A stretch of DNA of 55,782 nt, counting the filler, from Fonticula-like sp. SCN 57-25 (Eukaryota), in assembly GCA_001724245.1 (NCBI GenBank). It is 2 parts of 2 records of this genome, joined end to end, with 100 filler letters (N's around TTAATTAATTAA, not from the genome) between each part and the next. Parts side by side here need not be neighbours in the genome. Positions count along the whole stretch, not along the records: positions 1 to 27,937 come from MEDX01000054.1; 1 more part is not named here. The stretch is one strand, 5' to 3'. Positions 1,326-53,849 of this stretch are shown one piece after another. The notes beneath the pieces were generated by a model. The model made no database searches and was not told the DNA's origin. It saw only the letters and a list, made by a program, of their open reading frames with translations. A program made the position numbers and the translations under genes. Numbering within the stretch: the first letter of the stretch is position 1; each line of letters begins with the position of its first letter.

Positions 1326-1393
1326 TTCCCGCGCTCAAATATATCGCATGCGATTTTAAATAGTAGCTTATCCACGTGGACATACCGTCCGCC

Positions 1394-2875
1394 ATGGTTC
1401 TCTGGATCATCCCGCGCCGGACATGGCTTGTCGGCTACGTGCTTTTATGCTGTGTGCTTCTGTCTCTCTACAGCATTTCTACTCCCATAAGCGGAAATGC
1501 GTCTTTGCCTCCGCCGGGTGTTGATGCGGTTGGCCGAAAGGCTGGTGAAGGCCTTCATCGCCTTCCGACCAAGGTGGTGCCCGAAGTGCGTCCTTGGCCA
1601 ACGCGCCTGCCGGTCGCGCGGCCCACAACGATCTCTGAGGTGATTGCTGCGACGTTGCTTCCAACGGAGGAGAATGCGTTACCCACTCTATTCCCAACCG
1701 AAGCGCCTACAGTTGAAGGCCCCACCTCACCCCCCGAGACTGTGCAAGATCCTACACCTTCTGAGGCTGTGGAAGATCCTACACCTTCCGAGACTGTGGA
1801 AGATCCTACACCTTCCGAGACTGTGGAAGATCCTACACCTTCCGAGACTGTAGAAGATCCTACACCTTCGGAGTCTGCCGAAGATCCTACACCTTCGGAG
1901 ACCGCCGAAGATCCTACTTCACCTCCCGAGACCGCCGAAGATCCTACTTCACCCCCTGAGACCGAAGATCCTTCCTCACCTCCCGAGACCGTTAAAGATC
2001 CTACTTCATCTCCCGAGCCGCTAGCCGCCAGCGGTCTGCATTCAATGTATCCGCTTTCGGCTTCGAACCTTCCTCCTCTTGCGAGCAAGAAGCGCTATTG
2101 TATTTCGGTTCTTTCGTCCCCCCGCATTGATGCGGAAGGCAATGATCGCAGTGTGCTGGCGAGCTCTGTTGATCTTTTGGTGGCCGAGCTCGAGGGCCGC
2201 TGGGACGACGTGACGCTCGTGGTGTTTAATACGGCGAGCAACTGGTCGACATACGAGTCGATTCAGACGATCGCCAGCAAGCATCCGCAGCTGATCAGCG
2301 ACAGCCGCCTTATATTGGCGCGCCCGCCCTACGATGAGGGGCTCACGTGGCCAGCGTTGGAAGATCCGTCGCAGCTGCGCGTCTTTTTCAACGACCCGAT
2401 GGACCGCATTCTGTGGCGGTCCAAGACAGTGCTGGACTACTTGCACGCGCTGCACATGTGTTCAAACCTCGGCGACTATGTGCTCGCACTCGACGACGAC
2501 CTCATCCCGACATCACGCTTCCTCGACAAGGTCGACCAGTGGATCAGCACGCACAGCGATATTTCCGAGAGCCAATGGTTTGCAATCAACATGTTCACCA
2601 CGTTCAGGCACGCGGACGGGGAAGTCATTGTGCCGCCGTGCTGCAACCAGGCATACCTTATCCAGGCTGCGGACGTCCCGCTCTTTGACGCAACCCTGAG
2701 GCCCAAGTTTGACGAGGCGCCGCTCGACCTCTTGCTTGCGACCATGGCCAAGGATAGTGAGGATAAAAAGATGTATGGAATGATCCCGAGCTTGTTCCAG
2801 CACCAGTCGATTCTCTCGTCATTTGCCCAGAACGGGTTGAGGACGACCATTTCAAGCCCGTCATTTTTGCCATAA
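1394..2875 (+). CDS. Type II membrane glycosyltransferase, GT54/MGAT4-like, with a mucin-like P/T/S/E stalk
   Basis: N-terminal TM anchor, EDPTPSETV repeats, and motifs WRSKTVLDY, YVLALDDD and PSLFQH typical of MGAT4/GT54. First ATG is at 1394. Confidence 0.8.
   Translation: MVLWIIPRRTWLVGYVLLCCVLLSLYSISTPISGNASLPPPGVDAVGRKAGEGLHRLPTKVVPEVRPWPTRLPVARPTTISEVIAATLLPTEENALPTLFPTEAPTVEGPTSPPETVQDPTPSEAVEDPTPSETVEDPTPSETVEDPTPSETVEDPTPSESAEDPTPSETAEDPTSPPETAEDPTSPPETEDPSSPPETVKDPTSSPEPLAASGLHSMYPLSASNLPPLASKKRYCISVLSSPRIDAEGNDRSVLASSVDLLVAELEGRWDDVTLVVFNTASNWSTYESIQTIASKHPQLISDSRLILARPPYDEGLTWPALEDPSQLRVFFNDPMDRILWRSKTVLDYLHALHMCSNLGDYVLALDDDLIPTSRFLDKVDQWISTHSDISESQWFAINMFTTFRHADGEVIVPPCCNQAYLIQAADVPLFDATLRPKFDEAPLDLLLATMAKDSEDKKMYGMIPSLFQHQSILSSFAQNGLRTTISSPSFLP
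1735..2017 (+). repeat. Coding minisatellite: about 10 copies of a 27-30 bp unit (GAAGATCCTACACCTTCCGAGACTGTG)
   Basis: Directly visible tandem repeat encoding EDPTPSETV / EDPTSPPETA. Confidence 0.95.
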
Positions 2876-3165
2876 GTCGGCATTTTTTTGTCTAGCATCA
2901 TATCATGCGTTTATTATTATCACTTTGTATTACTTAGACTAATGTACCAGTAAGGCATTCCATAATAGTGTTCCGTAAACGCAAGCTGCGCGACCTATCC
3001 AGGACCTATCTGATCAAGTGTGCAAACTCGATTTAGTTTGCATCAGCAATTGGGCGGGAAAACCAAAACCGCGCCCACCAGCGGCTATCGACGGGCAAGC
3101 GAGGGTTTTTGCAGCCCTTCTTTAACGCCGTCCAGTTCCTGACTTTTTAAGCGGGGCTCTGGGTC

Positions 3166-5975
3166 ATGGCGGCGGTTTCGCGCAAGCGCCCTGCTGCGCT
3201 CGTGGTTCTCGAAGATGCTGCGCCAACAACGGAGAATGACGAGATTGAGTTTTTCGAGGCAGTCGCCGCGTTCCATGCGAGTACGAATGAAGGCGCGTCG
3301 CTCGAATATTCTCCTCTCCTCTTTGCCGGCACGCGCGTATACTGGATAGACGTTTATCGCGCTGTTGTTGCGCTTGGTGGCTGTGTTGCATCGACTGCGC
3401 AGCATGTCTGGTCCGATATTTGCGGACATCTTGGGGTACGCGATACTGGAAACCGGGACACATTTCTCTTTTTGTTTCGCGCACATTCCGCTAACTTTTG
3501 CTACGTATCAATTACAGATATCTCCCCGTTTTACGTATGCCGCGGCCTTTTTGCGTCACTGGTACATTCGGACTCTTTTCCCTTTTGAGCAGGTGTCTTC
3601 CTCGTTGCAGGTCGGGAACCCTTACGGCGATGCTCCTGTGACATCGACGCTGTTGCAAACGCGGACGTCGGACCCGACGCTCCCCATTGCAAACTCACCG
3701 GCTTTGAATAGTGGCGCTGTGTCGCTCACGTCGCTGCGCACGGAGCGTCAGCAACTCCTTTCCTTTTTGCGCCACGGCCGCCGTAGCCGGCTGGCCCTTT
3801 CGCTTGAAAGCGGCCTTCCCAACGAAGTAGACTGGGCGCTCGACGCCCTCATCCGCCTTTCGGCCCTTGTCGACGATCAGCTGGACATCTTTGAAAAGGT
3901 CCCGACGCTCTTTGACTCGCTCTTTCGGACCGTCGCCGGGTTCATGGCCCTGGAGATCACGGAAGAGAACGGCTTCATCGCTGCCGACTCTGGCTCCGAG
4001 TGGCCTTCCGTCGGGGACGCCACGAGCTTTGCGCAGGCGCCGTCCGACGTTCAGTCTGCCACGGTGGCGGCTGTGACGTCATGCAGCAGCTCAGACAACC
4101 CGACGCCGCCGCTGTCCATCGTGACACACCCATTTTGCGCTGGCAAGGTGCCTTCCTACGAGGCGCACCGTGTTGCTCAGATTGCACAGATGCTCGGCAA
4201 TTTCGGGAACCATGAACGGAGCGGGCCAACGACAGTGGCCGAGCAGCAGGTGCGTCGCTTCATCGAGCGCTGCATCATGCTGGACGGCCGCACAGAGCAC
4301 CTCGAATCCCGCCAAAAGGCGCTCGTCTACCTGCAAAACGTCGGCCACCTGCTCGTCCTGACGGTGCGCCGCACTGATTTCCATAGCCGCTTTTTTACTA
4401 ACCCGCTGCGCCATGCGCTGGCAGATATCCGACCTCTACTACCGCCGCCTTGCGAGTCTCGTGTTTTGCAATGACCGCCACCTCATTGCGGCTGCCCTTA
4501 CCGCTCTGTCGTCCGCGTGTCTCAACACAGAGAACGAGTCTCTGCTGCTTGCTATGGAGCCGCGGCTTCTTGAACACGCCGCCAACCTGCTTAGCGCAAC
4601 GACGCAGCACGGCGATGAGGAGCTCTCTCTGTGCATTCTCATGTTTTTCAACCGCTTCGTGTCGCTCAGCACGCTCTGCGCGCTGCGCGTCCTCAGCCTT
4701 CCGCACAACCATGTAATCAAAATTCTACTGTCCATCTTTATCGACGTGCGGCATCAAGGTCGGCCTGCCCGGCCCGCCGTTGGCGCCGTGAACGCGCGGG
4801 GCGCCGCGACTGCTCCGCAGGCGTCAGCCTCCGACGCGTCGCTTAGTGGCCGCGCCGCGGACGAGTGCATCAAGTGGCTTCTCGCACACTGCGAGCCCAA
4901 GCAGGACGGCGTGACGCCCGTGCTTCAGCTTTACGCCGACTACCGCGCGGCCACCAGGGGACAAGGTACGAACGAGAATCGCGGTATAATTTGCTCACCA
5001 GTGTCGCAGGCGACGAGGAGCCCGTCCCGAGGAGGACTTTCCACGCGTGCATCCAGACCGCTCTTCCGGAATCTTCACTGACTGTCGGAACGCACGAGGG
5101 CGTCGTTGAATATCCGCTCATATGATCGTTTTTGGTCTTTTTTCATGTCGTGTTGTGTACATATTGTGTCTTTGCTTTGCATGACGTGAATCTTATCGCT
5201 TTGCAGTTTGCTTCCTTAACCAGTGCTTACTCATCTAGCCCATGGCATTGTCGTCCGCACAACCGCTCTGCCGTCCGATCAAGTGGACACTCTCTTTGCG
5301 GCCATCAAGGCGCCCGAGTCGGCCGCGGCCAGCGCTCCCGGTGACGGCGAGGCAGATGAGGAGGGCGCTGAGGAGGAGCACCGCACGCTGCCGTCAGAGC
5401 TCCAGGACGTTGTGTCGCGAGCGGCCGCCGTGCTGCAGTCGCTCGAGCCGCGCCCCTTTGCGGGCGCCGCGTGCAGGTGGACCGTCGACGGCGCAGGTGC
5501 GCCGGTAGCCCATGGATTTGGTCACTTGCTGATACCGTTTTCAGAGTGCGGAAAGCGGTTCCGCTCGCTGCCGCTACTCCACGCCCACGTGGTATCCGCG
5601 CACATTGCCCAAGGCGCCGCTGCGTCCGAATGTGCCTGGCTGCGCTGCCAGCATGCGTGCCAGTCGCATTCGGCGCTCGCCGGCCACATCGTTTCGCACT
5701 TTCCCCTCGCGACGCCGAGCGCGCCCGTCGGCAGCACTGACGCGAGGCCAGAGCCCGACTCTATTTACAGCCTCTCGGCGTACGACCCGCAGGTTCTTTC
5801 GCCAGAGGCGTACATGGCCGCCTGCGTCGTCTACCTCATCGCGCGCTACCCAGAGTCGCACGAATTCATCCAGGACCTCATCGAGCCTACCCTCTTTGAG
5901 ATCGCCCAGCGAAAGCTCAGCCCAACGGCGAGATACTCGGTCGAGATTCTCGCAATGTTCAACGGCGCCGTGTAA
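3166..5975 (+). CDS. ARID2: ARID2/BAF200/Rsc9-like PBAF/RSC subunit. Exons 3166-3435, 3518-4363, 4425-4965, 5010-5109, 5231-5975 (833 aa)
   Basis: N-terminal ARID, SLESGLPNEVDWAL motif, ARM region, RFX-like winged helix, two C2H2-like fingers. Three GT-AG introns plus one AT-AC intron give a continuous 2502-nt frame. Confidence 0.88.
5110..5230 (+). other. U12-type (minor spliceosome) AT-AC intron in ARID2
   Basis: Donor ATATCCGC, branch point TTCCTTAAC (5212-5220) 10 nt before the terminal AC. Excision restores the frame (VVD/HLAHGIV); no in-phase GT donor exists in exon 4. Confidence 0.88.
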
Positions 5976-13425: not shown

Positions 13426-13680
13426 TCGTTTATGAAAAGATGTCGTGTACGAATAGACAATTATTGTATGTGTTGGCTGTATGATAGATATAGACTGTAT
13501 TTTAATAGACTGTGGTACTCTCAGCTCTGTCGCTGCAAGCCTCGTGTTTCTCCTGGGCCCGTCGCAGAACATATCCTCGATCTGATTCGTCGATCAGTGC
13601 TTAGAGCGTATATGATTGGCCACTCACAAATTCACAAATTGTCCATTTCATTGCACCCGTCCCTTGGCGCGCCTGCAACC

Positions 13681-15161
13681 ATGGAGTGCGACATTGGCAC
13701 GGTGTCGTTGATCGGCTCGCGCTCGTACAACCAAGACACGTACTTTATTGAACGCGGCCTCTTTGGCCACGCCAACCAATTCGCTTTTGGCGTCCTTGAT
13801 GGCCACGGCCAGCACGGACATCTCGTGGCGAATGCCGTCCGCGGTACGCATTTATTCGTGGTCGCCGCCGGTGCTGATCGCGATCCCTAGACCAATTCGT
13901 GCATCTTTTGCTGCGCGATCAGGCTTCGCTCATGAACGACCCCCCGCAGCGTCTGCATGACATCTTTCGCGAGCTGCAGCGTTGGCTGGAGACGATGCCC
14001 GTGCCGGACATGGACGTTGACATGAGCGGCACGACCCTCACTGTCGCGCTCGTGCTCAACCTGCCTGACCCCGACGCCGCCGCGGACGCGCCGCCAGTGT
14101 ACGCACATTTAAAAGAGGAAGAGAAGGGGAGAAAGGGAGAGAGGAAAAAGGGAGAAATAAGTATAGGCGGGGATGGTCGCGCAGTGAGCTAATCGTTGTT
14201 GTGCCGCAGGCCGGTGGCGATCATCGCACATGCAGGCGACAGCGCTGCCATGGTCGGCGGCCTTAAATACACGCCGCGGCCCGTCTGGCGCCTTTCGGCA
14301 CTCACAGAGTACGCATCCATCCATGGCGCAGTAGGGGGGCTTTTATCCAACGTGGCTTCATGTTGTTGCTTTGTGGATGTCCTTGATACATGTCTACTGA
14401 ATACTGTCCGTTGCCTTTGCTAACCCTCTTGGCTCCTCTTCAGCTCGCACAACTGGGACAATGCGGACGAGCGCGCTCACGCGACCCCCCAGGCGCGCAT
14501 TGACCGCATGCCGCTCGAGGAGGGCGCGCCGGCGGTCGAGTCGGAGGAGGACCTCGGCCCGCTGCGGATATACCGCGGCACGCTGCCGTACCCGGGCCTC
14601 GCCATGTCGCGCTCGCTCGGCGACATCATCGCGCACCAGCTCGGCGTTGCGTGGGAGCCGAGCATCGCCGTCAGGAAAATCATCCCGGACGACAAGTTTT
14701 TGGTGCGAAGGGGAAGACAATGAATGGTTTAATTGTAGGCTGGGTTAGTTGGGTTTGATTATGCTTATGTGTTTATTTGTATGTCTGTATGTGTGTGAGT
14801 GTAACTGTGAGTAGATCTTGATACTGTGTGACTTTTATCCTATATGAGGCTATTTGGATGTGGTGCTGTGTGAGTGTGAATAAGGAATTTTCTATCGTTC
14901 ATTTCCCCTCGTACCCTTCTATTTCCCTTCCCTTTGTCTAATACCGTGTAGCTCATTGCGACGGACGGCCTTTGGGACGTGTTCACGATGAAGGCCGCGC
15001 TCAAGATCGCGCGCCGCTGCCCGACTGCTTCCGGCATCTGCGAGGCGCTGCGGGAAAAGATCGAGCACCTGCACGAGCTGGACAACACGACCATCGTCGC
15101 GGTGCGGTTCGTCCACGCGAGCGACAACGGCGGCGACGCGTCCGACAGCGGAAGCAACTGA
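13681..15161 (+). CDS. PP2C (PPM) protein phosphatase, five exons
   Basis: Motifs NQD, FGVLDGHG, SGTT, AHAGDS, GLAMSRSLGD, LIATDGLWD and DNTT across exons joined by GT-AG introns. Confidence 0.92.
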
Positions 15162-25161: not shown

Positions 25162-27720
25162 TTACTTTGTGATAATGGATACGACTCGCTTCTCTCTATT
25201 TACGCGGAACGCCTTGACGTTCCTCTTGCCGACGACCTTTACGGTCTCGCCCGCCTCCCTGATTCTCTTCTCGAGCGCCTCATCATCGAGCTCGTCCATG
25301 TCCTTTTGCGTGACGCTGGTCCCCCCCTTGCCGCGGCCGTCCAGCTGGATGACGAACGGCACGGCGCGGTACCGCAGCACGCGCTCGTCGGCGGCCGGCC
25401 ACCCCGCCTCAAACACGTCGTCGCGGCGGTCGTCGCCGATGGCCGCCCACGCCTCGGCGGAAAAGTGCGGCGCGAACGGCGCGAGCAGGCGGACGAGCGT
25501 CTGCAGCGACGCGCGCACGTCGGCGCTGCCGCGGTCAGGCGCGTCGCAGATGGCGTTCAAAAGCTTCATGAGGTCCGACACGGCCGTGTTGAACGCAAAC
25601 GACGTCGACAGCGCGCTCGTCACGCGCTCCGCCGTCGCGTGCGTCAGCACAGTCAGCGAGGACGGCGTGACGTCGCCGTTGATGACGTCGGGATCGGATC
25701 CGTCGCCGCGCTTGTCAATGTGTTCGCCAATGGCGGCCCACAGCTTGCGGAGGAAGCGCGCGGGGCCGCTGATCGCCTTGTCCTCCCACATGAGCGCGTC
25801 GTCGTACGGCGCCTTGAAGAGGATAAAGAGGCGCAGCGTGTCGGCGCCGTGCTCGTCGACGACCTGCTGCGGGTCCGTCCCATTGTGCTTTGACTTGCTC
25901 ATCTTTTCAAACGAGACGGCGGGCGCCTTGCCCGTCGCGATCTCGACGCCGGTCGCGCTGTCAATCTCGTGCGGCTTGAGGTACGCGCAGCTGACGGAGC
26001 TCTTGGCGGTGCGCCCGAGCACGAGCCCCTGCGCGAGCAGCCGCTTGAACGGCTCGCCGGCCTTGGCGGGCAGCACGCCGTCATCGCGAAGGAACTTTGC
26101 TGTGAAGCGCGCGTACAAAAGGTGCAGGATGGCGTGCTCGACGCCGCCAATGTAATAGTCGACGGGCAGCCAACGCTCGGCCGCGTCGCGAGACACGAGC
26201 GCCGACGAATTGCGCGCGTCGGCGTACCGCGCATAGTACCACGCAGAGTCGACAAAGGTGTCCATCGTGTCGGTCTCGCGCGTCGCGGGGCCGCCGCAGC
26301 GCGGGCAAGTACACTTTAGCCAGTCGTGCGCATGGCGCAGCGGCGAATCGCCCTTGCCAGTGAACGGGACGCCTACTGGGAGCAGTACAGGAAGGTCCGA
26401 GGCAAGGACGGGAACAGTGCCGCACGCGCCCGCACAGTGCACGACGGGAATTGGACAGCCCCAGTAGCGCTGGCGCGAGACTAGCCAATCACGGAGGCGG
26501 AAGGGTGTCGAGGCGCGGTCGCCGAGCGCAGTCAGCATCTCGTGGTCGTCGCGCTCCGCCGCGTCAACGGCGGCAATGCCGTTCGCTTGCGCAAACCAAT
26601 CAGCGCGCGCGCACGCGCCCGGCGCGTAGATATGCGCGCGCAGATTCGAGCCGTCGGCACCCACGTGGGAGGCGACCCACACGGGAAGCGCGCGCGCCAC
26701 ACCCGGCACGCGCGCCACGACGCCTGGCAGCACCACGCCCGACGCATCCTTCTCATTGGGTACCGCGTGGTCTTTCAGCCAGGTTGCGACATGCTTGTGG
26801 CGCCGCGCGGCCTGCGTCGCGAGCGGGTGGTCGGGCGCGACGGCCACAAACGCAGCACGCGGCAGCGCACCCGCCCGCTCCACGTAAGCGTCCATGGCGT
26901 CAATTGTAATATCGTCACCGTCGCCGCTCGTGACGTCAATGCGGACATTGGTGCCGGGGTGCCTGATCCACGCTGCCTGCATCGTTTTCACGTTTTCCGG
27001 CCACTCGAGGCCCCCGACGCCGTCGAGCAGCTCCTGCTGGTACGCGGTCGTGCGCACAAACCACTGCTTGAGCAGGCGACGCTCAACAAGCGCGCCGCTG
27101 CGCCACGAGCGGCCCTGCTCGTCCACCTGCTCGTCCGCGAGCACCGTCTTGTCCACGGGATCCCAGTTCACCTCGGCCTCGGCCTGGTATGCTAGGCCGC
27201 GCTCCAGCAGGCGAACAAAGATCCACTGCGTCCACGCGTAATACGATCCGTCACACGTCACAACCTCATTGTCCCAGTCGTACGACAGACCAAGCCGACG
27301 CAGCTGGCCACGCATGTACGACATGTTGGACTCTGTCCAGGCAGCCGGTTCGACGCCGCGCTCGATCGCCGCATTCTCGGCGGGAAGGCCAAATGCATCA
27401 AACCCCATGGGATGAAGAACGTCATCGCCGCGCATCCGATGAAAGCGGGCAAGAAGATCGCCGATGGTGTACACGCGCACATGGCCCATGTGAAGCGCGC
27501 CCGACGGGTAGGGGAACATGGACAGCACGTACGACTTTGGCGCGGACGGCCGCGGCGCGACCGGCGACGTCGACCACCGCGACTGCCAACGGCGCTCCAC
27601 GTCAGAGTGGTCATACGTAGACGACCATGAAGATGAGAGCGACCGCGCGAGCACCGCCACAAGGGAACCGCGCGACGAGGCGGCTGGTCGCCCCACCACC
27701 GCGCATCCCCGCCGCAGCAT
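25162..27720 (-). CDS. LARS2: Leucyl-tRNA synthetase, bacterial type, mitochondrial
   Basis: [55 protein letters not shown]; Arg/Ser-rich presequence. Confidence 0.96.
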
Positions 27721-27937
27721 GATGTTTCAGTGCACGGCCACGTGATCCACTTGGTTGATTTGCATGGTCAGCATTTGGGCGCAGCGTCATCTGAGCCGTC
27801 ATTGCATCTATTGGCATCTGGCGGGCCTCTGCATGCTTGGCTAGTATGTGAAAGAGCAGCATGCTGCTATTGTTGCAACGATATTGGCGCAATGTTCTAG
27901 TCTAGTGATCCGTTCAACATGCGCTTCGAGCTCACAT

Positions 27938-28708: not shown

Positions 28709-29504
28709 CTACACCATCATCTCGCGCTGCAGCTCGGCGAGCTCGTCCTCCTCCTGCTCTGCGAGCGTCTTTTGCTTGGCCTTGCCCGCGGACGCCTTGC
28801 CGGCGATAATCGGCTCGTGCGTTGGCGCGGTCGGGAGCGAGACCGTCGGCTCAACGTCCAGGAGCTCCTGCGCCAACCCTTCATTCTCGAGGTCGTCGAG
28901 CTCCTGCATCAAGTCGTCCTCGTCAATGTATTGTGAATCGAAAGGCCTTGTGAGCGCAGCGGAAAGGTCCTGGGCAACGCTCATCTGCTCCTGGATCTCG
29001 TCCATTGTGTCCTCCACCTTGACCGAGTCACTAAGCGGAAAGCCGCATGTCAGCACGAGTACGGGGGGAGAATGCGGGGTCGTACAGGCCGCCGTGCAAA
29101 GTCTTGAGCGTCGACGCGCCAGCAAGCATACTGTCGAGCACCTCCCTGTTCATGCTCGCGGCCTCAATTTGTCCAAGCTGTGTCTCCAAATTAAAGCGCA
29201 TCTGCTCGACCTGCAGCAGCTGCGACTCGATCGCCTTCTTGCGCTTGAGGGCTTGCAGAGCAACTGCAAAGCGGGACGCGGGCATGTCAGCGCCGCAAAC
29301 AGCATAGAACGAGCAGCAAAACGTACCGGTCTTATTCTTCTGAGCGTTCTCCTTGGCGACGCGCAGCTCCTTGTCCATCCGCGCGGTGAGCATCGCCTCG
29401 CGCTTGCCGAGCATCTCGAGCGTCTCCTTCATCTTGAGCACGCCATTCTTGACATTCTCCTCCTTCTTTGCCGGTGCGCTCTTTGACGCACCAAAGAAAC
29501 GCAT
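28709..29504 (-). CDS. SNF7: ESCRT-III Snf7/Vps32/CHMP4, three exons
   Basis: LKMKETLEMLGKRE, KNKT/VALQALKRKK, LETQLGQIEAA, KVEDTMDEIQEQ, IDEDDLMQELDDLE, EEDELAELQREM. Confidence 0.93.
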
Positions 29505-38560: not shown

Positions 38561-41500
38561 ATGGGCGGCTCCTTTGAGGTCGACCTAGGGCCTGCCTTGG
38601 CCGCCCTCGTTGCGGAGCGGCCAGACCTTGCCACCAGCTTAGAGGTTCGCTTTGCCTGTTTGATTTCGAGGGCGCCGTCTAACCGGGACGTTTAGGTCAA
38701 GGGAAATCGGCCCCCGCTCGACGTGCTCGCCGACATCCTCATAGCAGACCCTGGGCTGACGGTCGCCGTTATTCGGCATTTCCGCGCGGTTCTGCTTGAC
38801 CTTGTCGCGCGTGCAATTAATAGACACGGAAACCAGTGGTCAAAGTCGGATGATCATGCGCTGGTACCGGCCGAGCGGCTCGGCGTAGCGCTCGCCGTTG
38901 TTGCGCATGTCGTGCCGTCAGTGTCACCGTACGCTTTTGAATCGCCACCCGCGGGCTCTAACACATGTTTGTAGGCACATCCTTGAGTATTGTCAGCGGA
39001 GCTCCCCGCTTTTTGGCCGTCTTCTTTTGATAGGAAACAGCGATGGCTTGGAGGGCGCCGTGCGCGCGCTGCATGCCACGGACGACGACGTGTGGGCGCA
39101 GCTCGTGCGGGCGTCGTACTACCTGTTGCAGGTCGACGTCCTGTCGATGTCACAGAGCTGGAACTGGTCGCCAATGTATGCGCTGCTTGCGCATCGCAGT
39201 GTGCTCGTGCGCACGTACGCGGTCCGCACGATCGCCACCTTGCTTGGGGCCGCGGACCAGGTGCGCGTTCGAATGATGTCGTCGTTTGTCGGGGCCGACG
39301 AAACCGACGCCGCTCTCGTCGAGTGCGAGCGGTACGACCGGGCTTTGACGCAGGAGAGGTCGCGTGCCTTTGTCGCGCCCGATGAAGCCTCGCCCGTTCC
39401 CGCCGTCAAGGTTGCTGCTCGGCATCTCTCGTCGCGGGTGGCCGATGCGGGAGGCATTTTGCTTCCTCGCCATAGCGCCGTGGAGGCCTTTACGCCTACC
39501 CTCGTTGCCGTAGATAGCATGGTCCGCAACATGCGGAGCCTCGCCATTGCATTTGCCTCGTCGAGCCCCATTTTGCTAGAGGGAGAGACCGGGGCGGGAA
39601 AGACCGCGCTTGTGGAAGAGTTTGCGCGCCTGGTCGGGCAGTCGCACCTCGTCAAGGTTCACCTTGGCGATCAGACCGACGGCAAGGCGCTGCTCGGCAC
39701 GTACGTTTGCACAGACATGCCCGGCGAGTTCCGCTGGCAGCCTGGACTCTTGACGCGCGCCGTTCTCGAAGGAGCGTGGGTGCTTATTGAGGACGTTGAC
39801 CTTGCGCCGATGGAAATGATGTCTGTTTTGTTGCCCCTCTTGGAGAGCCGCTCGCTGTACCTTCCGGCGCGTGACGAGCGTATCAATGCGGCCCCCGGGT
39901 TTGCCCTTTTCGGCACGCGGACGGTGCGCCACGGCTCGGGCTCGATTGTGTCGCCGACGTCCGCCGCCGCCGAGGCCCGCTGGATGCGCATCGCGATCGA
40001 GTCATTGACCGACAGCGAGATCCCCGCCATCGTCGCCGCGCAGCACCCGCAGCTCGTGCCTCTTTTCCCCTCGCCCGCGCTGGACGCTTTCCGCGCCGCC
40101 GTTGACGCCGTGGGAAGCACGCGCCCGCTGTCGGTGCGCGACTTGTTCAAGTGGTGCGCGCGGTTGAAGCGCTCGCTGCCCGCCAAGGTGACGGCCACGG
40201 ACCCGGTCCGCCGCGCTATGCTGCGAGAGGCCAACGTGTGCTGGCTTGGGATGCTGCCGAGCTCGGATGAAAAGTGGAAGGCGATCGCGTCCGTTGCCGG
40301 CGCGCTCGGCCTCAACTCGGACGTTTCGCAGCTGATGAGCGACGAAACGGCCTACAAGCCGACGCTGCACAAGACATCGTCGGTGCTGAATGTCGGCCGC
40401 GCAAGCCTGCCGCTTGCGCGTGGAGGCCAGGCGGTTGTCGGGAGCTCGCTGCCGTTTGCGATGACTGGTACGTCGCTGCGGTTGCTCGAGCAGATCGCCG
40501 AGGCCGTCGAGATGAACGAGGCGCTGCTGCTTGTCGGTGAGACGGGTACCGGCAAGACAACCGTCGTGCAGCAGCTCGCGCACCAGCTCGGCCAGGAGCT
40601 GGTCGTGCTTAATATGAGCCAGCAGAGCGAGTCGGCCGATCTTTTGGGCGGTTTCAAGCCGGTGGACATCCGGTTGCTGTGCGCCCCGCTCATGGACGAC
40701 TTTGTTCCGCTTTTCTGCCGGACCTTTTCGAGAAAGAAGAATCAGAGGTTCCTGGACAATGTCAACGCCGCGTTCACGTCGCATTCGTGGTCGCGCCTCG
40801 CGACGCTGCTCCAGAATGCCGTTCTCATGGCTGACAAGAAGATGGCCGCCGATGACGAGACGAGCCTGGAGCCCTCGGCCGACGGCGCGAGCGCCAAGCG
40901 ATCTCGCATTGCGCCAGAGCTGGCGGCAGAGTGGCGCCAGTTCACCGACCGCGTCCATCGCTTTGTTGCGCAGAAGCAGCAGGTGGAGAGCAGCTTTTTG
41001 TTTGCCTTTGTGGAAGGGTCGCTTTTGCAGGCCGTTCAACGCGGTGCGTGGGTTTTGCTGGACGAGATCAACCTCGCGCCCACCGAGACGCTCGAGTGTC
41101 TCGCCGGTCTCTTTGAGTCGCCCACTGGCACGCTAGTTCTGCCCGAGCGCCCCGGCGATGCGGACATTGTCCGGCACCCGTCTTTCCGCGTGTTTGCGTG
41201 CATGAACCCCGCCACCGATGTTGGCAAGCGCGACTTTCCCCCGGGTCTGCGCAGCCGCATGACCGAGCTGTACGTGGGTGAGCTCAACTCGCGGGCCGAT
41301 CTTGTCGATATCGTGCGCGCCTACCTCGAGCCGGTCGTCATGAACGCCGCGCCATGGGGAGACATTGTCGACTGGTATCTCGGCGCGCGCGAGGCCGCTC
41401 GCTCGGGCCAGCTCGTAGACGGAGAGAACCGGCGGCCGCACTACTCGCTCCGCACACTCTCGCGTGCCCTAGAGTACACGGCGCTCCTGGCGCCTCTGTA

Positions 41501-44500
41501 CAGCTGGCGTCGGGCTCTCTACGAAGGCTTGTGCATGTCGTTTATGACGCAGCTGGGTGCCGCATCGGTTACCGTCCTACACACGAGCGTGCTCCCCGTC
41601 GTCGGTGTCGGGAAGCAGCTTGCGCTCAGCGCGATCCTCCACGAGCCCAAGCGCCCTGCCTCGGACAGCGGGAGCGATTACGTGCTCGTTGAGAACTTTT
41701 GGATCCGCTGCGGTTCGGCGACGCTCTCGTCGAGCTTTGCAGAGCCGCCTGCCTACGTGCTCACCCCGAGCGTCAAGGGCAACCTTCGCTCCCTCTCTCG
41801 TGTGGTGGCGGCGGCGCGCTACCCCGTGCTCATCCAGGGTCCGACCTCTGCGGGTAAAACTTCCATGGTCGAGTACCTCGCTCGCCTGACGAATCATCGC
41901 TTTGTGCGCGTCAACAACCATGAGCACACCGACCTCCAAGAGTACCTCGGCTCGTACGTGACCAACCCCGTCGACGGAAAGCTCGTTTTCCGCGAGGGCA
42001 TCCTTGTCGAGGCACTGCGCCGCGGCTACTGGCTCGTCCTTGACGAGCTCAACCTTGCTCCCACGGACGTCCTCGAGGCGCTGAACCGCCTGCTCGACGA
42101 CAACCGCGAGCTCTTTGTGCCCGAGCTGCAGGAGACGATCCGCCCGCACCCCGACTTTTTGCTCTTTGCCACGCAGAACCCGCCGGGAGCCTACGGCGGC
42201 CGCAAGGTGCTGTCGCGGGCGTTCCGCAACCGCTTCTTGGAGCTCCAGTTTGAGGACCTGCCGATCGACGAACTGTCGACCATCTTGTCTGAGCGCTGCG
42301 CCATGCCGCCGTCGCGGGCAAAGCTCCTCGTCAATGTCTACCGCGACCTCCAGTCGCGGCGGCAAGGCACCCGTATCTTTTCTGGCCGTCATGGTTTCAT
42401 CACCCTGCGTGATCTTTTCCGTTGGGGCTCCCGCGAGACGACCGACCCTCAGGCGTTGGCCGAGGACGGCTTTAGGCTGCTCGGTGAGCGTGTGCGGCGC
42501 TCGGAAGAGCGCGAGCTCGTTCGCGAAAGCATCGAAAAGGTGTTCAAGGTGAAGGTGGACGACCTCGCGCTGTACTCGACCGAGGCTCTCCACGCGGACC
42601 CGCTCTGGCCGGCCGTGTGTGCTGCTGCCGAGGCGGGCGACCCGACGGTGTTGCGGTGCGTTTGGACCCCGGCCATGCGGCGCCTTTTCCTACTGGCGTC
42701 ACGCTCGCTGCGCTGCGGCGAGCCGCTCCTGATTGTAGGCGAAACAGGCTGCGGCAAGACATCCGTTGTGCAGCTCCTCGCTGCGGCGCTTTCCCGCCCG
42801 CTCCACATTGTCAACTGCCACGAGCACACTGAGACGGCCGACCTTCTTGGTAGCCAGCGCCCCGTGCGCGCACGCGACCAGATCCGCAAGGACACGCAGG
42901 CTCAGCTGGCGGCGGTGCTCGCTGCGTCGGACCCGGCCTTGGCCGAATCCGTTTCCTTGGCTACCGCCACGGACGCCGACATTTCTGCAGCCCTTGCAGG
43001 CCTCGACCACCCGGATGGCGACAAGCTAAGGGCCCAATGGGCGCGCAGCCAGGCGCTGTTTGGCTGGCAGGACGGCGTACTCGTGCAGGCCATGCGCCAG
43101 GGACACCTCTTTTTGCTCGATGAAATGTCTCTTGCGGACGATTCGGTGCTCGAGCGTCTCAACAGTGTCCTCGAGCCCGTGCGTCTTCTTGTCCTCGCCG
43201 AAAAAGGCGGCGAGTCGGTCGACGAAATCATCGCGCACCCCAACTTTCACCTGTTTGCCACGATGAACCCCGGTGGCGACCACGGCAAGAAGGAGCTCAG
43301 CCCCGCCTTGCGCAACCGCTTCACCGAGCTGTGGGTGCCGGCCATCGACGACGATGTAAGCCTCGGTCTTATCTTGAAGGCCCGCCTTCCCGTCGAGCAC
43401 GCCGATGCGTTTGCCGACTACATCCTAAAGTTCCTCACGTGGATTCGCGCGCAGCCGTTTGCTTCCAAGCGCGCACCGTCCCTCCGCGACGTGATTGCGT
43501 GGGCCGACTTTGTCGTGACGACGCGTCAGCTCGCGCCAGCCGAGGCTCTTGTGCACGGCTGCGAGCTTGTCTTCCTCGATGGCTGGTCGCATTCCGAGGC
43601 CAAGGAAGGGCGCGCCATGCTTCACGCCATGGTCGGCTCGCCGAGCGACGCCCCCGCTCTGGCCAACATGTCGCAGGACCAGCTGACGATGACCAGCGAA
43701 GGCTTCTTTGGCGCGTCGCCGTTCTGGATTGCGCGCGGCCCGGCTGCACTCCCGGAGCGCTCGCAGCTCGCCCTGCACGCGCCGACAACGCGCCTCAACG
43801 CGATGCGCGTTCTCCGCGCACTCCAGCTCCGCAAGCCCATTCTCCTAGAGGGCCCTCCCGGCGTGGGCAAGACCTCCTTGGTCCAGGCCATCGCCGCCTC
43901 GGCAGGCCACAGCCTCGTCCGCATCAACCTGTCCGAGCAGACCGACCTGATGGATCTGTTTGGCGCGGATCTGCCCGTGGAAAGCTCGGCCAACGACGAC
44001 AGCGGAAGCGGAGGCCTCTTTGCCTGGCGCGACGGCCCGCTCCTTCAGGCGCTGCGCCGCGGGGCGTGGGTCCTCTTGGACGAGCTCAACTTGGCGTCGC
44101 AGAGCGTCCTGGAAGGCCTGAACGCTTGTCTCGATCACCGCGGCGAGCTTTACCTTCCCGACCTCGACCTGCGCATCAATGTGCCCCCGACGTCGCGCAT
44201 CTTTGCGGCGCAAAACCCCGTCTCGCAAGGCGGCGGCCGCAAGGGCCTTCCCCGCAGTTTTGTGAACCGCTTCACGGTGGTTCACGTTGCCGAGCTGGCG
44301 GACGAGGATTTGCTCGCCGTCGCGTCGAGCGCCCACCCGTGGGCCGACGCTGATGCGCTGAGCACGATGGTCAAGTTTACGCGCGCGATGCACGATGCCG
44401 TGAACAGCGGCCGCCTGGGACGCGACGGTGCGCCATGGGAGTTTAACTTGCGTGATATTCTGCGCTGGCTTGACGCGATGGTCGAGTACAAGTTGCAGGA

Positions 44501-47500
44501 CCCGACCCCGCTGGTCGACCTTCTGTTCCTGCAGCGCTTGCGCACGGCCTCCGACCGGTCCATTGCGCGCGAGCTTTTTGAAGAAGTTTCTGGCAAGCCG
44601 CTTCCCGTGTCTCCCTACGCCGCGCTGGACATTACCTCGGACGCGGTGCGCGTCGGGCCTCTGGCAGTGCTGCCGCGCTCGTCGTCGCTGCGCTTTAGCA
44701 CGACGGATGCTCCGAGCGACATGTACATGCACAGCACTGTGCGCGCCGTCGAGGCCGTGCTCCACGCGGTTCGCCTCGGCTGGATGGCGCTCATCACTGG
44801 CGACGCTGCAACCGGCAAGTCGGCCTTGATTCGCTCGGCCGCCACGCTGGCTGGCCGCCGTCTCCACGAAGTCGCCCTGAACGCGGGCACGGATACCGGC
44901 GAGCTGCTCGGCGGTTTTGAACAGCTTGATCTTGAGCACGAGCGTCAGCAGGTTCTTTCGGAGCTTGCGGTGCTGGTGGACAATGCGTGCGCGGACGCTC
45001 TTTGCGGCAACGTCACAGACACTTTGCTGGCTTTTGCGCGTCGCCTGCGCGATGCCGCGTCCCTTGCCCTGTCAAACACCCCCTTGCTGCACGAACAGCG
45101 CATGACGAGGATTGACCATGTCGTGTCTCTCCTCCCCGCCGCGGCACCGCTCCGCGCGCGCATGGCGCAGCTCGGTGAGCTTGAGCGCGGCGCCGCGTCT
45201 GGGCGCTTCCGCTGGGTCGACGGCGCTCTGATTCGCGCCATGGTGGCGGGCGACTGGGTCCTCCTGGACCATGCCAACCTCTGCCCCCCGGCCGTGCTCG
45301 ACCGCCTCAACCCGCTCATGGAGCCGAACGGCCGCCTCGTCGTGTCCGAGCGTGGTGTCGTCGGCGTTCAGGGCGAGCTGTACCAGGTTGCCATGCACCC
45401 CGATTTCCGCCTGTTCCTTGCGGTGGATGCGTCCGCCGGCCAAGTGTCTCGCGCCATGCGCAACCGCGGTGTCGAAATCTGCCTCGTTCGCGAGGTCGAG
45501 GGCGATGCCGCGCCGTCTCCCGATTCGTCACGCGCAATGGCCGACGCAGTCCGCGTCGCAGTCGCGCACGGCGTGACGCACGCGCCGTCCGCTACCATGC
45601 TCGCGGAGGAATCCTACGCGGCCCACAAAAAGCACAATCTCCGCGCCGTGGCGCAGGCCGCTACCGTCGCGGGTGTTTTGGCCGAGCGCGGACTTGCCGA
45701 GAACGCTGTCTTTATGGCGTCCCGCAGCGTCTATGGCCAGGAGCCAACGACAACGGTTGTGGCCACCGATTCTTCGTGCCACGTGCTTTCGCAGCGCGTC
45801 AGCGACTTTGCCGAGGATGCGCGCTCTGCCTCCACATGGCGGACGATTTCCGTCATGGACCGCGCCGAACTGGACGCGGTCGTGGCCTTGCAGCGCGCGG
45901 CCATGCGTCTGCCACTGAGCAGCGCGGGCCTGGCGGCCCGCATGAGTTTTGAGCTGAGGGGTCTTCTTGAGGCCCGCAGCTCTGTCCCCGCGCTCATGGA
46001 GGCGTGGCGGCAGGGCGGGTTCGAGTCGAACGCTCTCCCGCTCTCTGCGGCGGACGGCGGCGAAGCATCGCTTGACAACAGCTTGTTTGCCGTTGCTGAT
46101 CTGTGCTACCAGTTCTCACAAGAGCTTGAAAGTCACGTCGCGCGCGCCGCATCGCTTCCCGTTCACCAGCTGACGCTCGTTGAGCGCTCCTGTGCGCTCC
46201 ACAACCGTCGCTCGGACTTGCACGTCGGCGATTTTGCCCAGTGGGAGCCGTTGGTCTACCCGCTCCTGCGCGATGCGCTGCAGCTCATAATCTCGTTTGT
46301 TCAGTCGCTTCCCGCCACTTCGGCGGACGTCAACCACGACATTGCTCGCGTGCTGGCGCGCGCCCGCACACTCGCCTTGTCGGCCGACTCGCTCGCGTCA
46401 TTCGCCGCGCATCTCCGCCCTCTTGCGATGCTTCTCAAGAACCAGCTGAACGTTCAGGGCGACCTCGCGTCCCTCCTGGACCGTCTCGAGGCACTCTTGC
46501 CGCTGGCTGCATGGGACCGCTGGGCGCGCGGCTATCGCTCCGGCTTCCACAGCCGCCCGATCCGCTTTGAGCCGCTTGCCCGCCTCCGCGACCGCCTGCA
46601 TGCCCTGTGCGCGTCCGACGCGCTTCTGCAGCGCCCGTCGCCCGACGTGCTGAACGCCATCGGCGCAGTCTACTCGCTCGCTGATGTGAACCAGCCGGAC
46701 CCCGATGCGATTGCGGCTCTCGAGACGCTATGCACTGCTCTGGAATCGCTTCCTCAGCAGCCGAACGCGTCACTGACCGCTTCACTCTGGGCATCCCGCT
46801 CCGTGGCGGAGGAAATGGCGATCGTTGCGCAGCTCGTTTCGGGTTCGGCCGACGGCGCAGCGCTCGCGGCCGAGATTAGCGCATTCTTTTCGATGCCGCT
46901 GCGTCGCTCCCCGCGCTCGCTCGCTCCGCTTCAGCACGCCAAGTGGGTGCTTGAGGAAGGCTCGCCATCGCTGCGTCTTTCGATTCAGCCGGCCGCGCTT
47001 CGCAGTACGCAGGCTGCTCTGCACTCGCTTGTTGTTGGGCGCTCTTTCACGGCGCACGAGCTCGGCTCGGTCGCGCGCGCCATCCTCGATGCCCGCTCGA
47101 CCTCGCTTGACGCCAACGAGCGGAACAAGGCCAACCTGGCGGACGCCAAGGAACTACTCCAGAACGCCCCGCTTCACTCGTTCAATAAGGCGCTTGCCGT
47201 GTTTGACGACCTCGCCGACGCGGTCTGGATTGCCGTGTCAAGGCTGCACGAGGTGCGCGGCGACGCTGCGATGGTTCAGCCCCCAGCGGGCCCGTCGGTG
47301 TCGCTCGCCGTGGCGGGCCAGCGCCTTGCCCTCACTGGCCTGGCCCTTCTCTCCGTGACCGCGCTGCCGCTCGCACTGGACCCCGCTGCCGCTGTTCACG
47401 CCGAGCTGCAGCATGCCGCGCGTTCCTCGTCAACGGTGCTTGCCCACTTGAATGTAGAGGCGGCGCTTGAGAACGCCATTCGCGGCGTGCCTCGCAACGA

Positions 47501-50500
47501 GAGCATGAGCGAAGCATCGCCGTATCTCACGACGGTTCTTCGCGCGCTGCACGACCGCCGCCTCGTTGCCGAGCGGTCCGTGTCTGACCTTGAGCGCCAG
47601 CGCGTTGACCGCCCGTCGGATTCTGCGCGTGCCATCGCCGACATCCACTCGGCCACGTCCCAGATGCTCACCATGCTGACGCAGGGCCGCCGCCTCGAGC
47701 GCCAGCTGACAAACACTGACCCCCGCGAGGCGGCCGTGACGGCCCGCACGCTGGCCGCGTTTGCCGCGCAGCTTGACGCGTTCGCCGACCACTACAGCGA
47801 CTTGACGGACACGTCTTCCGCGGCCACGTACATGATTTTGAACGGCCTCTCGATGACCGCCACCGCCGCGATGATCAACGCCCCGCTGTTTGAAGCGCTT
47901 GCGGCGGTGGCCGTTGGCGACGACAACGCGGTTGCAGCCGACGTGGCGCTGCCCGACCTGTCCGCCAGCGCGCGCCTTTTGCTCGCCATGCAGACGACGG
48001 TTCTGGCGGCACAGCGCACCGGGCTGCCGGCCAAGTACGAGATGCCAGTTTTGGGCGACGCATTTGTCCTGTGGGCCGACGGCGAGGACGCACGCAAGGA
48101 GTTTGAGGCGGCGCAGGATGAAGCGTACCGCTACCGCATTCGTTCCCATGAGTTTGCCACCGACGATGAGCTGGACGAGCAGCGCTACCGCGAGTCCTTC
48201 CCGACGTTTGACGGCGACTACACGGACGTGTTCATGCAGATTGACGAGGCAAAGCACGACGAGCTGCAAAAGGCGGCCAAGGCGCAGGCGGCCAAGCCGG
48301 TGATGAAGTCGCCGCCGCCGCCGGCCTTTGACGCGGCGCAGGCCCGCGAGCTGCGCGCCCTGCTGACCAGCACACACTTTGCCGATCTTTCGAGCGAGTC
48401 GCGCAAGCAGCTGCGCCTCCGAGTCAAGGCGCATTCCTCTGCGCTTGTGACGCGCATTCTCGCCGCGCACGGCGATACGCTCACGTCCGACATCGACGCT
48501 GTCGCACGAATTATGGTGGCTGACGAGCTGGAAAACGCCGACTCTTTGGTCATTGCTCCGCTCGGCCAGTGGCGCTTGCTGACCACCGAGCCCTCGGCCG
48601 CGGCGCTTGCCCTCTGGGGCGACGTGCACGTAGAGGATTCGCTTCAGTTTGTGTCGCCGTCGTCGTACGACTTTTACCATGACGCGCGTCGCTCCGAGAC
48701 GTCGCAGGCAGCCGCTGCTCTGGCGGCTCTGCGCGCTCGCCTCGCCGAGCTCATGGCAGAGTGGCCCGACCACGAGATTCTTATGCGGATTGACACTGTT
48801 GCCGCACGCGTGCAGCAGCTCAATCTCGGCGCCCCCGTGATGCGCATCCTCACCGGCGTTGAGATGATTCTCCGCGTTGCGCAGGACTGGGAGCTTGTGG
48901 CGTCACAGGCGGTGTCGCTGGCGTCGTTCCTCGCACCGCTGACCGCGCTCGTGCTTCAGTGGCGCCGCCTCGAAGTCATGTCGTGGCCGCAGATGCTCGC
49001 ATCTCGTGCCGACGCGGCCGCTCAGCGTGACCTTGACGCCCTGTGGTTCCACCTTGCACGCATGGTTCTCCAGAGCAACTGGGACGCTGTCGCGTCGTCT
49101 GACGCCATGCAGGTCGACACGGGCTACCAGCAGGCGCCGCTCGCCGAGCTCGTCAAGCTTGTCGACCAGTTTATTCTGGGCGCGCCGTCGATTCAGTTTG
49201 CCACGCGTCTTCACAGCGTCGCTGCGCTTGCATCGCTCGCGCCCTCGGACTCGCCCGCGCGCGCCATCATTTCCAACATGGTGGCGCAGTACGGCCAGCA
49301 CCTGCCCAGCGTCCGTGCCAATGTGCAGTCGCTGCGCGCGCCGATCGACAAGGAGTTTGCCGAGATTGTCAAGCTCGCAAAGTGGCACGACGTCAACTAC
49401 CACGCGCTCAAGGCGTCGTCCGAGCGTCACCACCGCTCGCTCGCCCAGATGCTGCGCAAGTTTGAGGAGGTGCTCAAGGCGCCCGCGCTCAATGTGCTGC
49501 AATCCCTTGAGGCCGTCGCGCCCGCGCCGACGCCCACTGCGTCCCAAGCCGCGCCGCCGCCACCGTCGCACATCCCCGCGACATTCAACGCCAATGCGAC
49601 GGCCGTCACGCGCGCTGCCGGCGGCGATCTCTACGGGATTGCACCGCCGAGTATCGTCAGGGGACTTGGTAACTTTAGCTCTGATATTGTCGAGCAACTG
49701 CGCGGCTTCGAGACCGAGTCGAACGCTCAGCAGTACAGCGAAGAGACGAAGAAGATCTTTTCGCAGCTAAAGTCGCGCAAGCGCCTCGCCTATACGTCGT
49801 TGCTCAAGACGCTGACAAAGGTCGGCCTGAACGCGAACCGCCCGCTGCTCACTGCGGCGCAGCTCGACGATCCGCTCTTTGTGCTGGCGCGGCCGCCCGT
49901 TCGCGCGTCGGCAGACGACATGATGAAGGACGCGCGCCGCTATTTCCACCGCGGCATGGCGCAGCTCAACACGCTCCGCCGCGGCGCCCGTGCAGCTCAT
50001 GTGCACCGCGACATTAACAAGCGCGACCTCGACAAGATGGTCAATTTTGCCATTAACCTCCTTCACGTCGTGTTGCAGCAGCAGACCATTGGCCACGAAC
50101 TCGTCAACCGCGCCGATGCCATTGCGCGTCTGCGGTCGGCCCTGATCCTTGCCGCCGAGCCGGCGCCCGCCGCCAAGATTGCGCTGCGCGATTCCCGCGA
50201 CGCTGCCGAGCAGCTCGCCGCCGCGCTCTCCATGCTGATCACCTTTGCAGAGGATGTGCCGTCGTCGCAGCGCCTCGCGGCAGAGTCGCTCTCCGACGTG
50301 GCCGCACGCGTTGCCTCCACCGCTGAACTTTTGGCGGCGCCGCTCGCGGCCCTCAAGCGCGGCCTGGAAGACACGCTCGTCTGCTCGCAGCAGGATGACG
50401 TCACGCCATACTCGTTCGTTGCATCGCTGATTGAGGCCGCTCCTCTCGCCGAGCGCGCTTCCGAGATGCTTGCCCGCGCGTGCGGCGATACGGTCCTTGA

Positions 50501-53500: not shown

Positions 53501-53849
53501 GGTCCTTGAAGGCGCGCGCGCGCGTCACCACCAGTCGGCCGACCTCTGGCAGCTCCACATTGTCGTATCGGACGGCGCGCTGCTTGACGAAGACCGTTCG
53601 CAGCTCGCGCGGCTCGTGCGGCAGGCGGCCGAGCGCCGCGTGCTCATCGTGTTCCTCGCCATTGACAACCGCGCGCAGTCGATCGCGGATCTGCAGTCGG
53701 TGTCGTACGTGAATGGGCAGGTGCAGGTGAAAAGATATCTCGACTCGTTCCCGTTCGAGTTCTTCTTGCTGCTCAGGGATATGCAGACGCTGCCGGCGAT
53801 CCTCGCTGACTCGCTCAGGCAGTGGTTCGAGCTTATGGCCAGAATGTAA
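38561..53849 (+). CDS. MDN1: Midasin/Rea1 AAA+ ATPase (60S biogenesis). Exons 38561-38644, 38696-38928, 38975-53849 (about 5063 aa)
   Basis: Six Walker A motifs (GETGAGKT, GETGTGKT, GPTSAGKT, GETGCGKT, GPPGVGKT, GDAATGKS), linker, D/E-rich tail, MIDAS/VWA domain (VDDSRSM). Confidence 0.98.

Follow-up and report, generated by a model that had tools for sequence, protein, structure and literature searches.

A putative U12-type AT-AC intron in an ARID2/Rsc9-like gene of Fonticula-like sp. SCN 57-25

A five-exon gene whose frame is restored by removal of an AT-AC segment

The DNA analysed here, referred to as the window, is a 55,782-nucleotide stretch from Fonticula-like sp. SCN 57-25 (assembly GCA_001724245.1), made up of two parts of two records joined by 100 filler letters. 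On its plus strand, between 3166 and 5975, lies an ARID-domain gene, and we focus on the segment at 5110-5230 that interrupts its coding sequence. The pieces of the gene are in separate frames, in open reading frames (ORFs) at 3151..3588, 3350..4474, 4362..5081, 4847..5125 and 5220..5975, and upstream of the ATG at 3166 there is a stop in the same frame. Joining these pieces by script in a five-exon model gave a coding sequence of 2502 nucleotides (nt) with a single terminal stop, corresponding to 833 codons plus TAA, and this ORF was obtained only with 5110-5230 removed. The signals and frame considerations described below make it highly probable that 5110-5230 is a U12-type (minor-spliceosome) AT-AC intron, the fourth and last of an ARID2/Rsc9-like chromatin-remodeller gene. 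The coordinates of exons, introns and splice signals are collected in Table 1.

If intron 4 is retained, the frame of exon 4 closes at a TGA within it. The frame of exon 5 opens directly after a TAA (5217-5219) that lies inside the branch motif, so that any acceptor upstream of this TAA yields a stop. Removal of 5110-5230 joins GA to T in phase 2. We searched for donor/acceptor pairs of the GT-AG, GC-AG and AT-AC types that reconnect the exon-4 frame with that of exon 5, and obtained 24 stop-free in-frame joins, of which 18 are AT-AC, six are GC-AG and none is GT-AG. The GC-AG joins use the donors GCATCC or GCGTCG, which differ from the GT[AG]CG[ACT] donors of introns 1-3. Among all 24, an ATATCC donor and a branch motif occur together only in 5110-5230, and this AT-AC join is the only one with consensus-grade signals that restores the full-length ORF.

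The composition of the locus follows the same boundaries. G+C content is 0.57-0.66 across the exons of the gene as against 0.39 in intron 4, and exon 4 looks coding, since its G+C at third codon positions (GC3) shows the same frame pattern as in exons 2, 3 and 5 (Table 1). RNA folding of intron 4 gave a z score of -1.25, with no notable structure.

Splice signals of intron 4

The U12-type consensus has been given as /RTATCCTTT at the 5' splice site and as UCCUUAACU at the branch site in the text excerpted from PMC2846911, and as [G/A]TATCCTT and TTCCTT[G/A]AC in that of bioRxiv 10.1101/2020.10.12.336362. Intron 4 reads ATATCCGC at 5110-5117, with ATATCC at +1 to +6 (5110-5115) and GC in place of TT at +7/+8, where it departs from RTATCCTT. 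Its branch site matches the published UCCUUAACU at eight of nine positions. The branch motif ends with base 5220, 10 nt from the intron's final base, and the candidate branch adenosines 5218 and 5219 are 12 and 11 nt from that base, a branch-to-3' distance typical of minor introns. Minor introns are also biased against phase 0, which the phase 2 position of intron 4 fits. A sequence-only reading of this DNA had already proposed a frame that halts at 5123-5125 and reopens past the in-frame TAA, a 121-nt removal joining GA to T, AT-AC ends, a branch point 10 nt from the end and GC at +7/+8. Every one of these coordinates proved right when read against the sequence, the join is borne out by the scripted ORF with its one terminal stop, and the further claim that exon 4 lacks a phase-1 GT able to use the CAG at 5223 is confirmed by the absence of GT-AG pairs among the 24 joins.

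We have treated the mismatch at +7/+8 as a weak site and not as exclusion from the U12 type, T being the consensus there without being obligatory, because accepted U12-type introns also deviate from the 5' motif at single positions (GTATCCATCA, ATAACCTTTC and GTATCTTTTT in the excerpted Table 1 of PMC7367187). No double deviation at +7/+8 was seen among the U12-type introns in this excerpt of the table.

A possible route for removal of the intron can be drawn from the established model of minor splicing. The U11/U12 small nuclear ribonucleoprotein (snRNP) pair, the di-snRNP, would jointly recognise ATATCCGCT as the 5' site and TTCCTTAAC as the branch site. In the standard model, T at +7/+8 pairs with U11 and U6atac; a branch site that is perfect and lies at the optimal distance from the 3' end (11-12 nt) may compensate for the two pairs lost here. 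U11 would then be replaced by U6atac at the 5' site, and excision between A5109 and A5110 and between C5230 and T5231 would create a GAT codon inside the winged-helix domain. We infer both the use of this junction and the presence of minor snRNPs in the organism; if intron 4 is spliced, the organism retains a minor spliceosome, which the sequence-only reading had proposed in the form of U11, U12, U4atac and U6atac.

Chance occurrence and sequence accuracy

To judge how often such motifs arise by chance, a composite pattern (ATATCC, TCCTTRAC, 6-13 nt and AC in that order, within 500 nt) was sought in first-order Markov simulations of the window. It was present somewhere in 46 of 2000 simulated windows, a count that precedes any demand for location at an ORF break, coding strand or correct phase. 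The composite pattern alone is a one-in-forty event per window, and what convinces is its position: on the coding strand, exactly between the open frames and in the correct phase. Rough arithmetic puts the joint chance of motifs and position at 1e-5 or below. On both strands of the 55.8-kb window TCCTTRAY occurs eight times as against 3.51 expected, and TCCTTAAC occurs once, in intron 4. RTATCCNY is over-represented in the window (22 occurrences versus 9.8 expected; 0 of 100 shuffles reached 22), and the sites other than the intron 4 donor have no matching branch site. Only one of the sites is a plausible minor donor, and the excess probably stems from codon usage.

A relaxed scan of the window for U12-type introns returned only noise besides 5110-5230. 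The ATATCCTT sites at 29503 and 33395 were rejected as U12 donors, there being no branch motif downstream; an intron at 13571-13815 would remove both the start of a gene for a PP2C-like phosphatase and a motif conserved in it; and 11487-11085 on the minus strand has the non-canonical pair GT...AC.

Errors of assembly or sequencing in intron 4 are excluded, because an independent metagenome contig, L001 (3391 nt), carries the identical intron. This contig aligns to 2462-5852 of the window at 99.94% identity and does not differ from it anywhere across 5110-5230. The two mismatches lie at 3177 (T/C), a third codon position, and at 4241 (G/A), a first codon position, and point to population variation in the source organism. 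In the metagenome scan that yielded this contig, 190 stretches matched the pattern and reduced to one locus, that of L001, from the same organism. No relative in which conservation of the intron could be followed was found in the metagenome scan, which gave L001 alone, or in a scan of prokaryote genome contigs, which gave 84 pattern matches and 0 relatives.

Identity of the host gene

The ARID domain (PF01388) was recognised in exon 1 with an E value of 1.8e-5 and 25.5 bits, above the Pfam cut-off of 24.1. At the end of exon 3, the last 46 residues gave a weak match to RFX_DNA_binding (PF02257; E 0.019, 16 bits versus a cut-off of 27), in an alignment that spans profile positions 4-32 of 79. 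The 47 unmatched positions correspond to the whole of exon 4, 33 codons, and some 14 further codons at the start of exon 5, which would place intron 4 inside the winged helix and make exon 4 necessary for its completion. Judging from these lengths, exon 4 should encode the middle of an RFX-like winged helix. Exons 4 and 5 alone gave no Pfam match. Among language-model look-alikes, exon 2 resembled armadillo/BAF250_C clusters (0.89), and exon 3 came nearest to two atlas clusters, 'RFX-type winged-helix' at 0.83 and ARID+RFX at 0.78; all three values are below 0.9 and serve as leads. AlphaFold modelling of exon 3 alone was unusable (mean predicted local distance difference test score 45.3).

Exon 5 matched Pfam zinc-finger models at E 0.0088 and 0.041, under their cut-offs, suggesting a weak C2H2-like region, and its three zinc-finger matches in PDB had E values of 2 or more. 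A search of exon 5 against 1.84 billion representatives gave three matches, namely itself, an unrelated multi-zinc-finger protein and a metagenome fragment (P0122; 126 residues, from a 741-bp contig of another organism) to which its C-terminus is 48% identical. A search of exon 3 against longer proteins gave 5646 candidates, none of them significant. The PDB sequence search gave 0 matches both for exon 3 and for the ARID exon, and neither ARID2 nor Rsc9 was matched through a solved chain.

In its layout the predicted protein is reminiscent of ARID2 (BAF200)/Rsc9 of the PBAF/RSC remodellers, with an N-terminal ARID and, as weaker candidates, an armadillo-like middle, an RFX-like winged helix near residues 520-600 and C-terminal C2H2-like fingers. 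Human ARID2 has this layout of ARID, armadillo-like region, RFX-like winged helix and C2H2-like fingers. The protein differs in being much shorter than the human one (833 residues) and in having no significant match to solved chains. We therefore use ARID2/Rsc9-like as a weak label, suggested by domain layout and not by sequence similarity to ARID2 or Rsc9. This also bears on the sequence-only reading, which had proposed a U12-type AT-AC intron in ARID2/Rsc9: the intron is supported in silico and sequence error is excluded, and an ARID above the Pfam cut-off stands behind the gene name, which is consistent but weak, with a poor RFX match, cluster look-alikes below 0.9 and no sequence similarity to solved ARID2 or Rsc9 chains. 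As regards published minor-intron genes, 'ARID2' is absent from the main texts of PMC10639083 and PMC11347168, whose gene lists lie in supplements, and as far as indexed terms of PMC10724271 go, that paper holds both 'ARID2' and 'minor intron'.

Alternative explanations

A number of observations weigh against a U12-type intron at 5110-5230. The donor is without T at both +7 and +8; the motifs by themselves, without the frame argument, are not overwhelming in view of the 46 simulated windows; the RFX match that supports exon 4 falls under the Pfam cut-off; and no orthologue spanning the intron 4 junction was found in the exon 3, exon 5 and PDB searches. No minor small nuclear RNA (snRNA) was found within the 55.8-kb window: nothing reached the gathering score in an Rfam scan of the window, and at E up to 1 there was no snRNA, only a sub-threshold Acido-1 (E 0.17) taken as chance. 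Finally, an in-frame GT-AG alternative exists, from GT 4966, a good donor, to CAG 5223, a pyrimidine-rich acceptor. As exon 4 could be skipped in frame, it becomes less certain that minor splicing is indispensable to the gene.

This last alternative would require the major spliceosome alone: a 258-nt GT-AG intron from GT 4966 to CAG 5223 would make exon 4 intronic, and the U12-like motifs would be a product of chance or the relic of a lost intron. The join is in frame and stop-free, its donor GTACGA fits the local donor pattern, a pyrimidine-rich stretch precedes the acceptor, and low-G+C candidates for major-type introns of 187-249 nt may be present in other parts of the window. When single-intron GT/GC-AG solutions from the frame of exon 3 were listed, there were 24, nine of them with GT donors (4966, 4984 or 5047), and all with acceptors at 5223, 5238 or 5283. 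The sequence-only reading had raised the use of CAG 5223 from an upstream donor only as a scenario for refutation, which understated the case, given that GT 4966 reaches it in frame. We nevertheless consider this alternative improbable. The 100 nt that would be skipped have an exon-like G+C of 0.63 and the frame-specific GC3 of the other exons; intron 3 holds its own complete signals, with CTCAC 12 nt ahead of CAG 5009; and the single branch-like motif ahead of CAG 5223 ends 3 nt from it, as compared with 12-24 nt between branch motif and acceptor in the three GT-AG introns of the gene. Skipping would moreover leave about 14 residues for the 47 unmatched RFX profile positions. A form lacking exon 4, and with it the winged-helix core, could exist as a minor isoform or as a fallback of the major spliceosome.

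A GC-AG intron of the major type, 124 nt from GC 5100 to CAG 5223, would also be in frame and stop-free in place of the AT-AC pair. GC donors normally require an otherwise strong match, and here the donor GCGTCG is unlike the GT[AG]CG[ACT] donors of this DNA, while the acceptor raises the same difficulty as in exon skipping; we regard this route as extremely unlikely. Retention of 5110-5230, in a pseudogene or in a message for a protein truncated at TGA 5123, is hard to reconcile with an exon 5 that is open for 248 codons with a GC3 of 0.77 and whose C-terminus is conserved in another organism's fragment (48% identity), and with remaining introns, start and stop codons that are all intact, and is accordingly judged highly improbable. 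As to class, U2-type AT-AC introns, a rare kind excised by the major spliceosome, have major-like donors and no minor-type branch site. Terminal dinucleotides alone do not decide the matter, and termini are stated not to define intron type (excerpts of PMC10639083). Both ATATCC as donor and TTCCTTAAC, 11-12 nt before the 3' end, are motifs of the minor type, and we give excision of intron 4 by the major spliceosome a very slight probability. On balance, the sequence feature at 5110-5230 is genuine and very probably functions as a U12-type intron, its splicing being predicted.

Placement of the organism

Midasin (MDN1/Rea1) is encoded in the window by one uninterrupted ORF of 4986 codons (38889-53849, plus strand). 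Across its AAA region, identity to the best 120 matches, mostly from early-diverging fungi, is 46-53%, and the best identity of 53% implies a host organism without a close sequenced relative. A quick tree (LG+G4) was built from 38 rows, the window and 37 of the 120 matches, which were chosen so as to cover the groups with names as well as six unnamed rows; no animals, nucleariids, rozellids or aphelids were among the matches, and the tree has none. The window fell in a clade with all 30 fungal rows (support 98 in the Shimodaira-Hasegawa-like approximate likelihood ratio test) and outside them (99), on a long branch (0.96) of deviant composition. From this single gene, the organism may tentatively be regarded as a lineage branching at the base of Fungi or close to it, or else as a fast-evolving fungus. 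The leucyl-tRNA synthetase of the window was uninformative for taxonomy, being equally close, at about 45% identity, to the proteins of cyanobacteria, Capsaspora and Fonticula.

Minor introns occur in several non-Dikarya fungal lineages, making up 0.272% of introns in Rhizophagus and 0.554% in Basidiobolus, and are absent from Dikarya (excerpts of PMC10639083). Together with such introns, a placement on the fungal side would count in favour of the U12-type reading.

Other features of the window

Midasin is intronless, as against four introns in the 2.5-kb ARID gene. This difference fits a published trend, in which introns are denser in genes that have minor introns than in other genes. The major-type donors look unusually uniform, following GT[AG]CG[ACT] at 3436, 4364, 4966, 13844, 30406, 30832 and 54373 on the plus strand and at 33700 and 29085 on the minus strand; major-type introns are short (44-98 nt), and between their acceptor and a CT[ACG]A[CT] branch motif there are 10-24 nt. 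Outside the ARID gene, these donors and introns are heuristic candidates. Neighbouring genes are listed at the end of Table 1. In the PP2C-like gene, Pfam PP2C matched the last piece weakly (E 0.004), and the remaining pieces carry what we take to be PP2C motifs.

Table 1. Coordinates and composition of the ARID2/Rsc9-like gene, its predicted splice signals and neighbouring genes in the window
Feature	Position	Strand	Description	G+C	GC3 by frame
ARID2/Rsc9-like coding region	3166..5975	+	5 exons, 833 codons plus TAA; ATG to TAA; exon limits from sequence reading and scripted joins
Exon 1	3166-3435	+
Intron 1	3436..3517	+	GT-AG, 82 nt; donor GTACGC; CTAAC branch motif
Exon 2	3518-4363	+		0.61	0.74 / 0.62 / 0.48
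Intron 2	4364..4424	+	GT-AG, 61 nt; donor GTGCGC; TACTAAC branch motif
Exon 3	4425-4965	+		0.63	0.74 / 0.67 / 0.47
Intron 3	4966..5009	+	GT-AG, 44 nt; donor GTACGA; CTCAC branch motif; phase 1
Exon 4	5010..5109	+	100 nt, coding	0.63	0.72 / 0.65 / 0.52
Intron 4, putative U12-type AT-AC	5110..5230	+	121 nt; phase 2; last intron of the gene; stops in all three frames	0.39	0.33 / 0.45 / 0.41
5' splice site ATATCCGCT	5110..5118	+	matches /RTATCCTTT at 7/9; G and C at +7, +8
TGA	5123..5125	+	closes the exon-4 frame (ORF 4847..5125) when intron 4 is retained
Branch-site motif TTCCTTAAC	5212..5220	+	holds the window's only TCCTTAAC; fits TTCCTTRAC
TAA	5217..5219	+	in the downstream frame, within the branch motif; ORF 5220..5975 opens directly after
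CAG, alternative major-type acceptor	5221..5223	+	acceptor of the in-frame GT-AG and GC-AG alternatives; 2-5 nt after branch-like adenosines
3' splice site TAC	5228..5230	+	terminal AC 5229-5230
Exon 5	5231..5975	+	predicted end of RFX-like domain, putative C2H2-like zinc-finger region, conserved C-terminus, TAA	0.66	0.77 / 0.70 / 0.51
MGAT4-like glycosyltransferase	1367-2875	+	ORF; N-terminal near-identical Pro/Thr/Glu-rich repeats (EDPTPSETV-type)
PP2C-like phosphatase	13681-15161	+	multi-exon gene
Leucyl-tRNA synthetase	25162-27726	-	bacterial/mitochondrial type, one ORF

Discussion

Intron 4 has much in common with the U12-type AT-AC introns of animals, plants, oomycetes, Acanthamoeba and the non-Dikarya fungi Rhizopus, Rhizophagus and Basidiobolus: AT-AC termini, ATATCC, a TTCCTTAAC branch site whose adenosines lie 11-12 nt before the intron's last base, a non-zero phase, no requirement for GT-AG, rarity (one in the 55.8-kb window) and a host gene that holds more introns than the genes around it. 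It differs in having G and C for T and T at +7/+8, and in being known here from sequence alone. A comparison can also be made with the 'minor-like' introns, in which the minor-type motifs are matched less well at one of the sites and which were proposed as intermediates between intron classes (excerpts of PMC11347168). Such introns carry AG at -2/-1, which lets the major spliceosome take over, whereas intron 4 does not; it has AT-AC termini, A at -1 and a perfect branch site. As an example of a known intron class, intron 4 is sound yet ordinary, and not unexpected in the light of the published surveys.

The sequence-only reading had suggested that GC at +7/+8 may mean a divergent U11/U6atac or a rate-limiting intron. 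It is also conceivable, though unlikely, that GC at +7/+8 represents a lineage-wide shift of the minor 5'-site consensus, for which U11 at its 5' end and U6atac in its 5'-site-binding box would have changed to compensate. A precedent for a lineage-wide change of splice motif with a compensating snRNA change is found in Physarum polycephalum, in which the branch motif became TTTGA and U12 changed alongside (excerpts of bioRxiv 10.1101/2020.10.12.336362). Such a shift, in an unsampled lineage branching beside Fungi, may be the 5'-site counterpart of this co-evolution of branch site and U12; the present case differs in that one intron is known, the 5' site deviates and the branch site is canonical.

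A gene finder restricted to GT-AG introns would truncate or split this remodeller gene, and in the public protein collections searched only the last exon is present, as a stand-alone ORF of 250 residues. The combination of a weak donor, a perfect branch site and an in-frame skipping option would offer a natural test case for the need of the minor spliceosome for 5'-site pairing. If intron 4 works as predicted, the organism still carries a minor spliceosome, and would provide a data point for the map of patchy retention and loss of this machinery around the base of Fungi.

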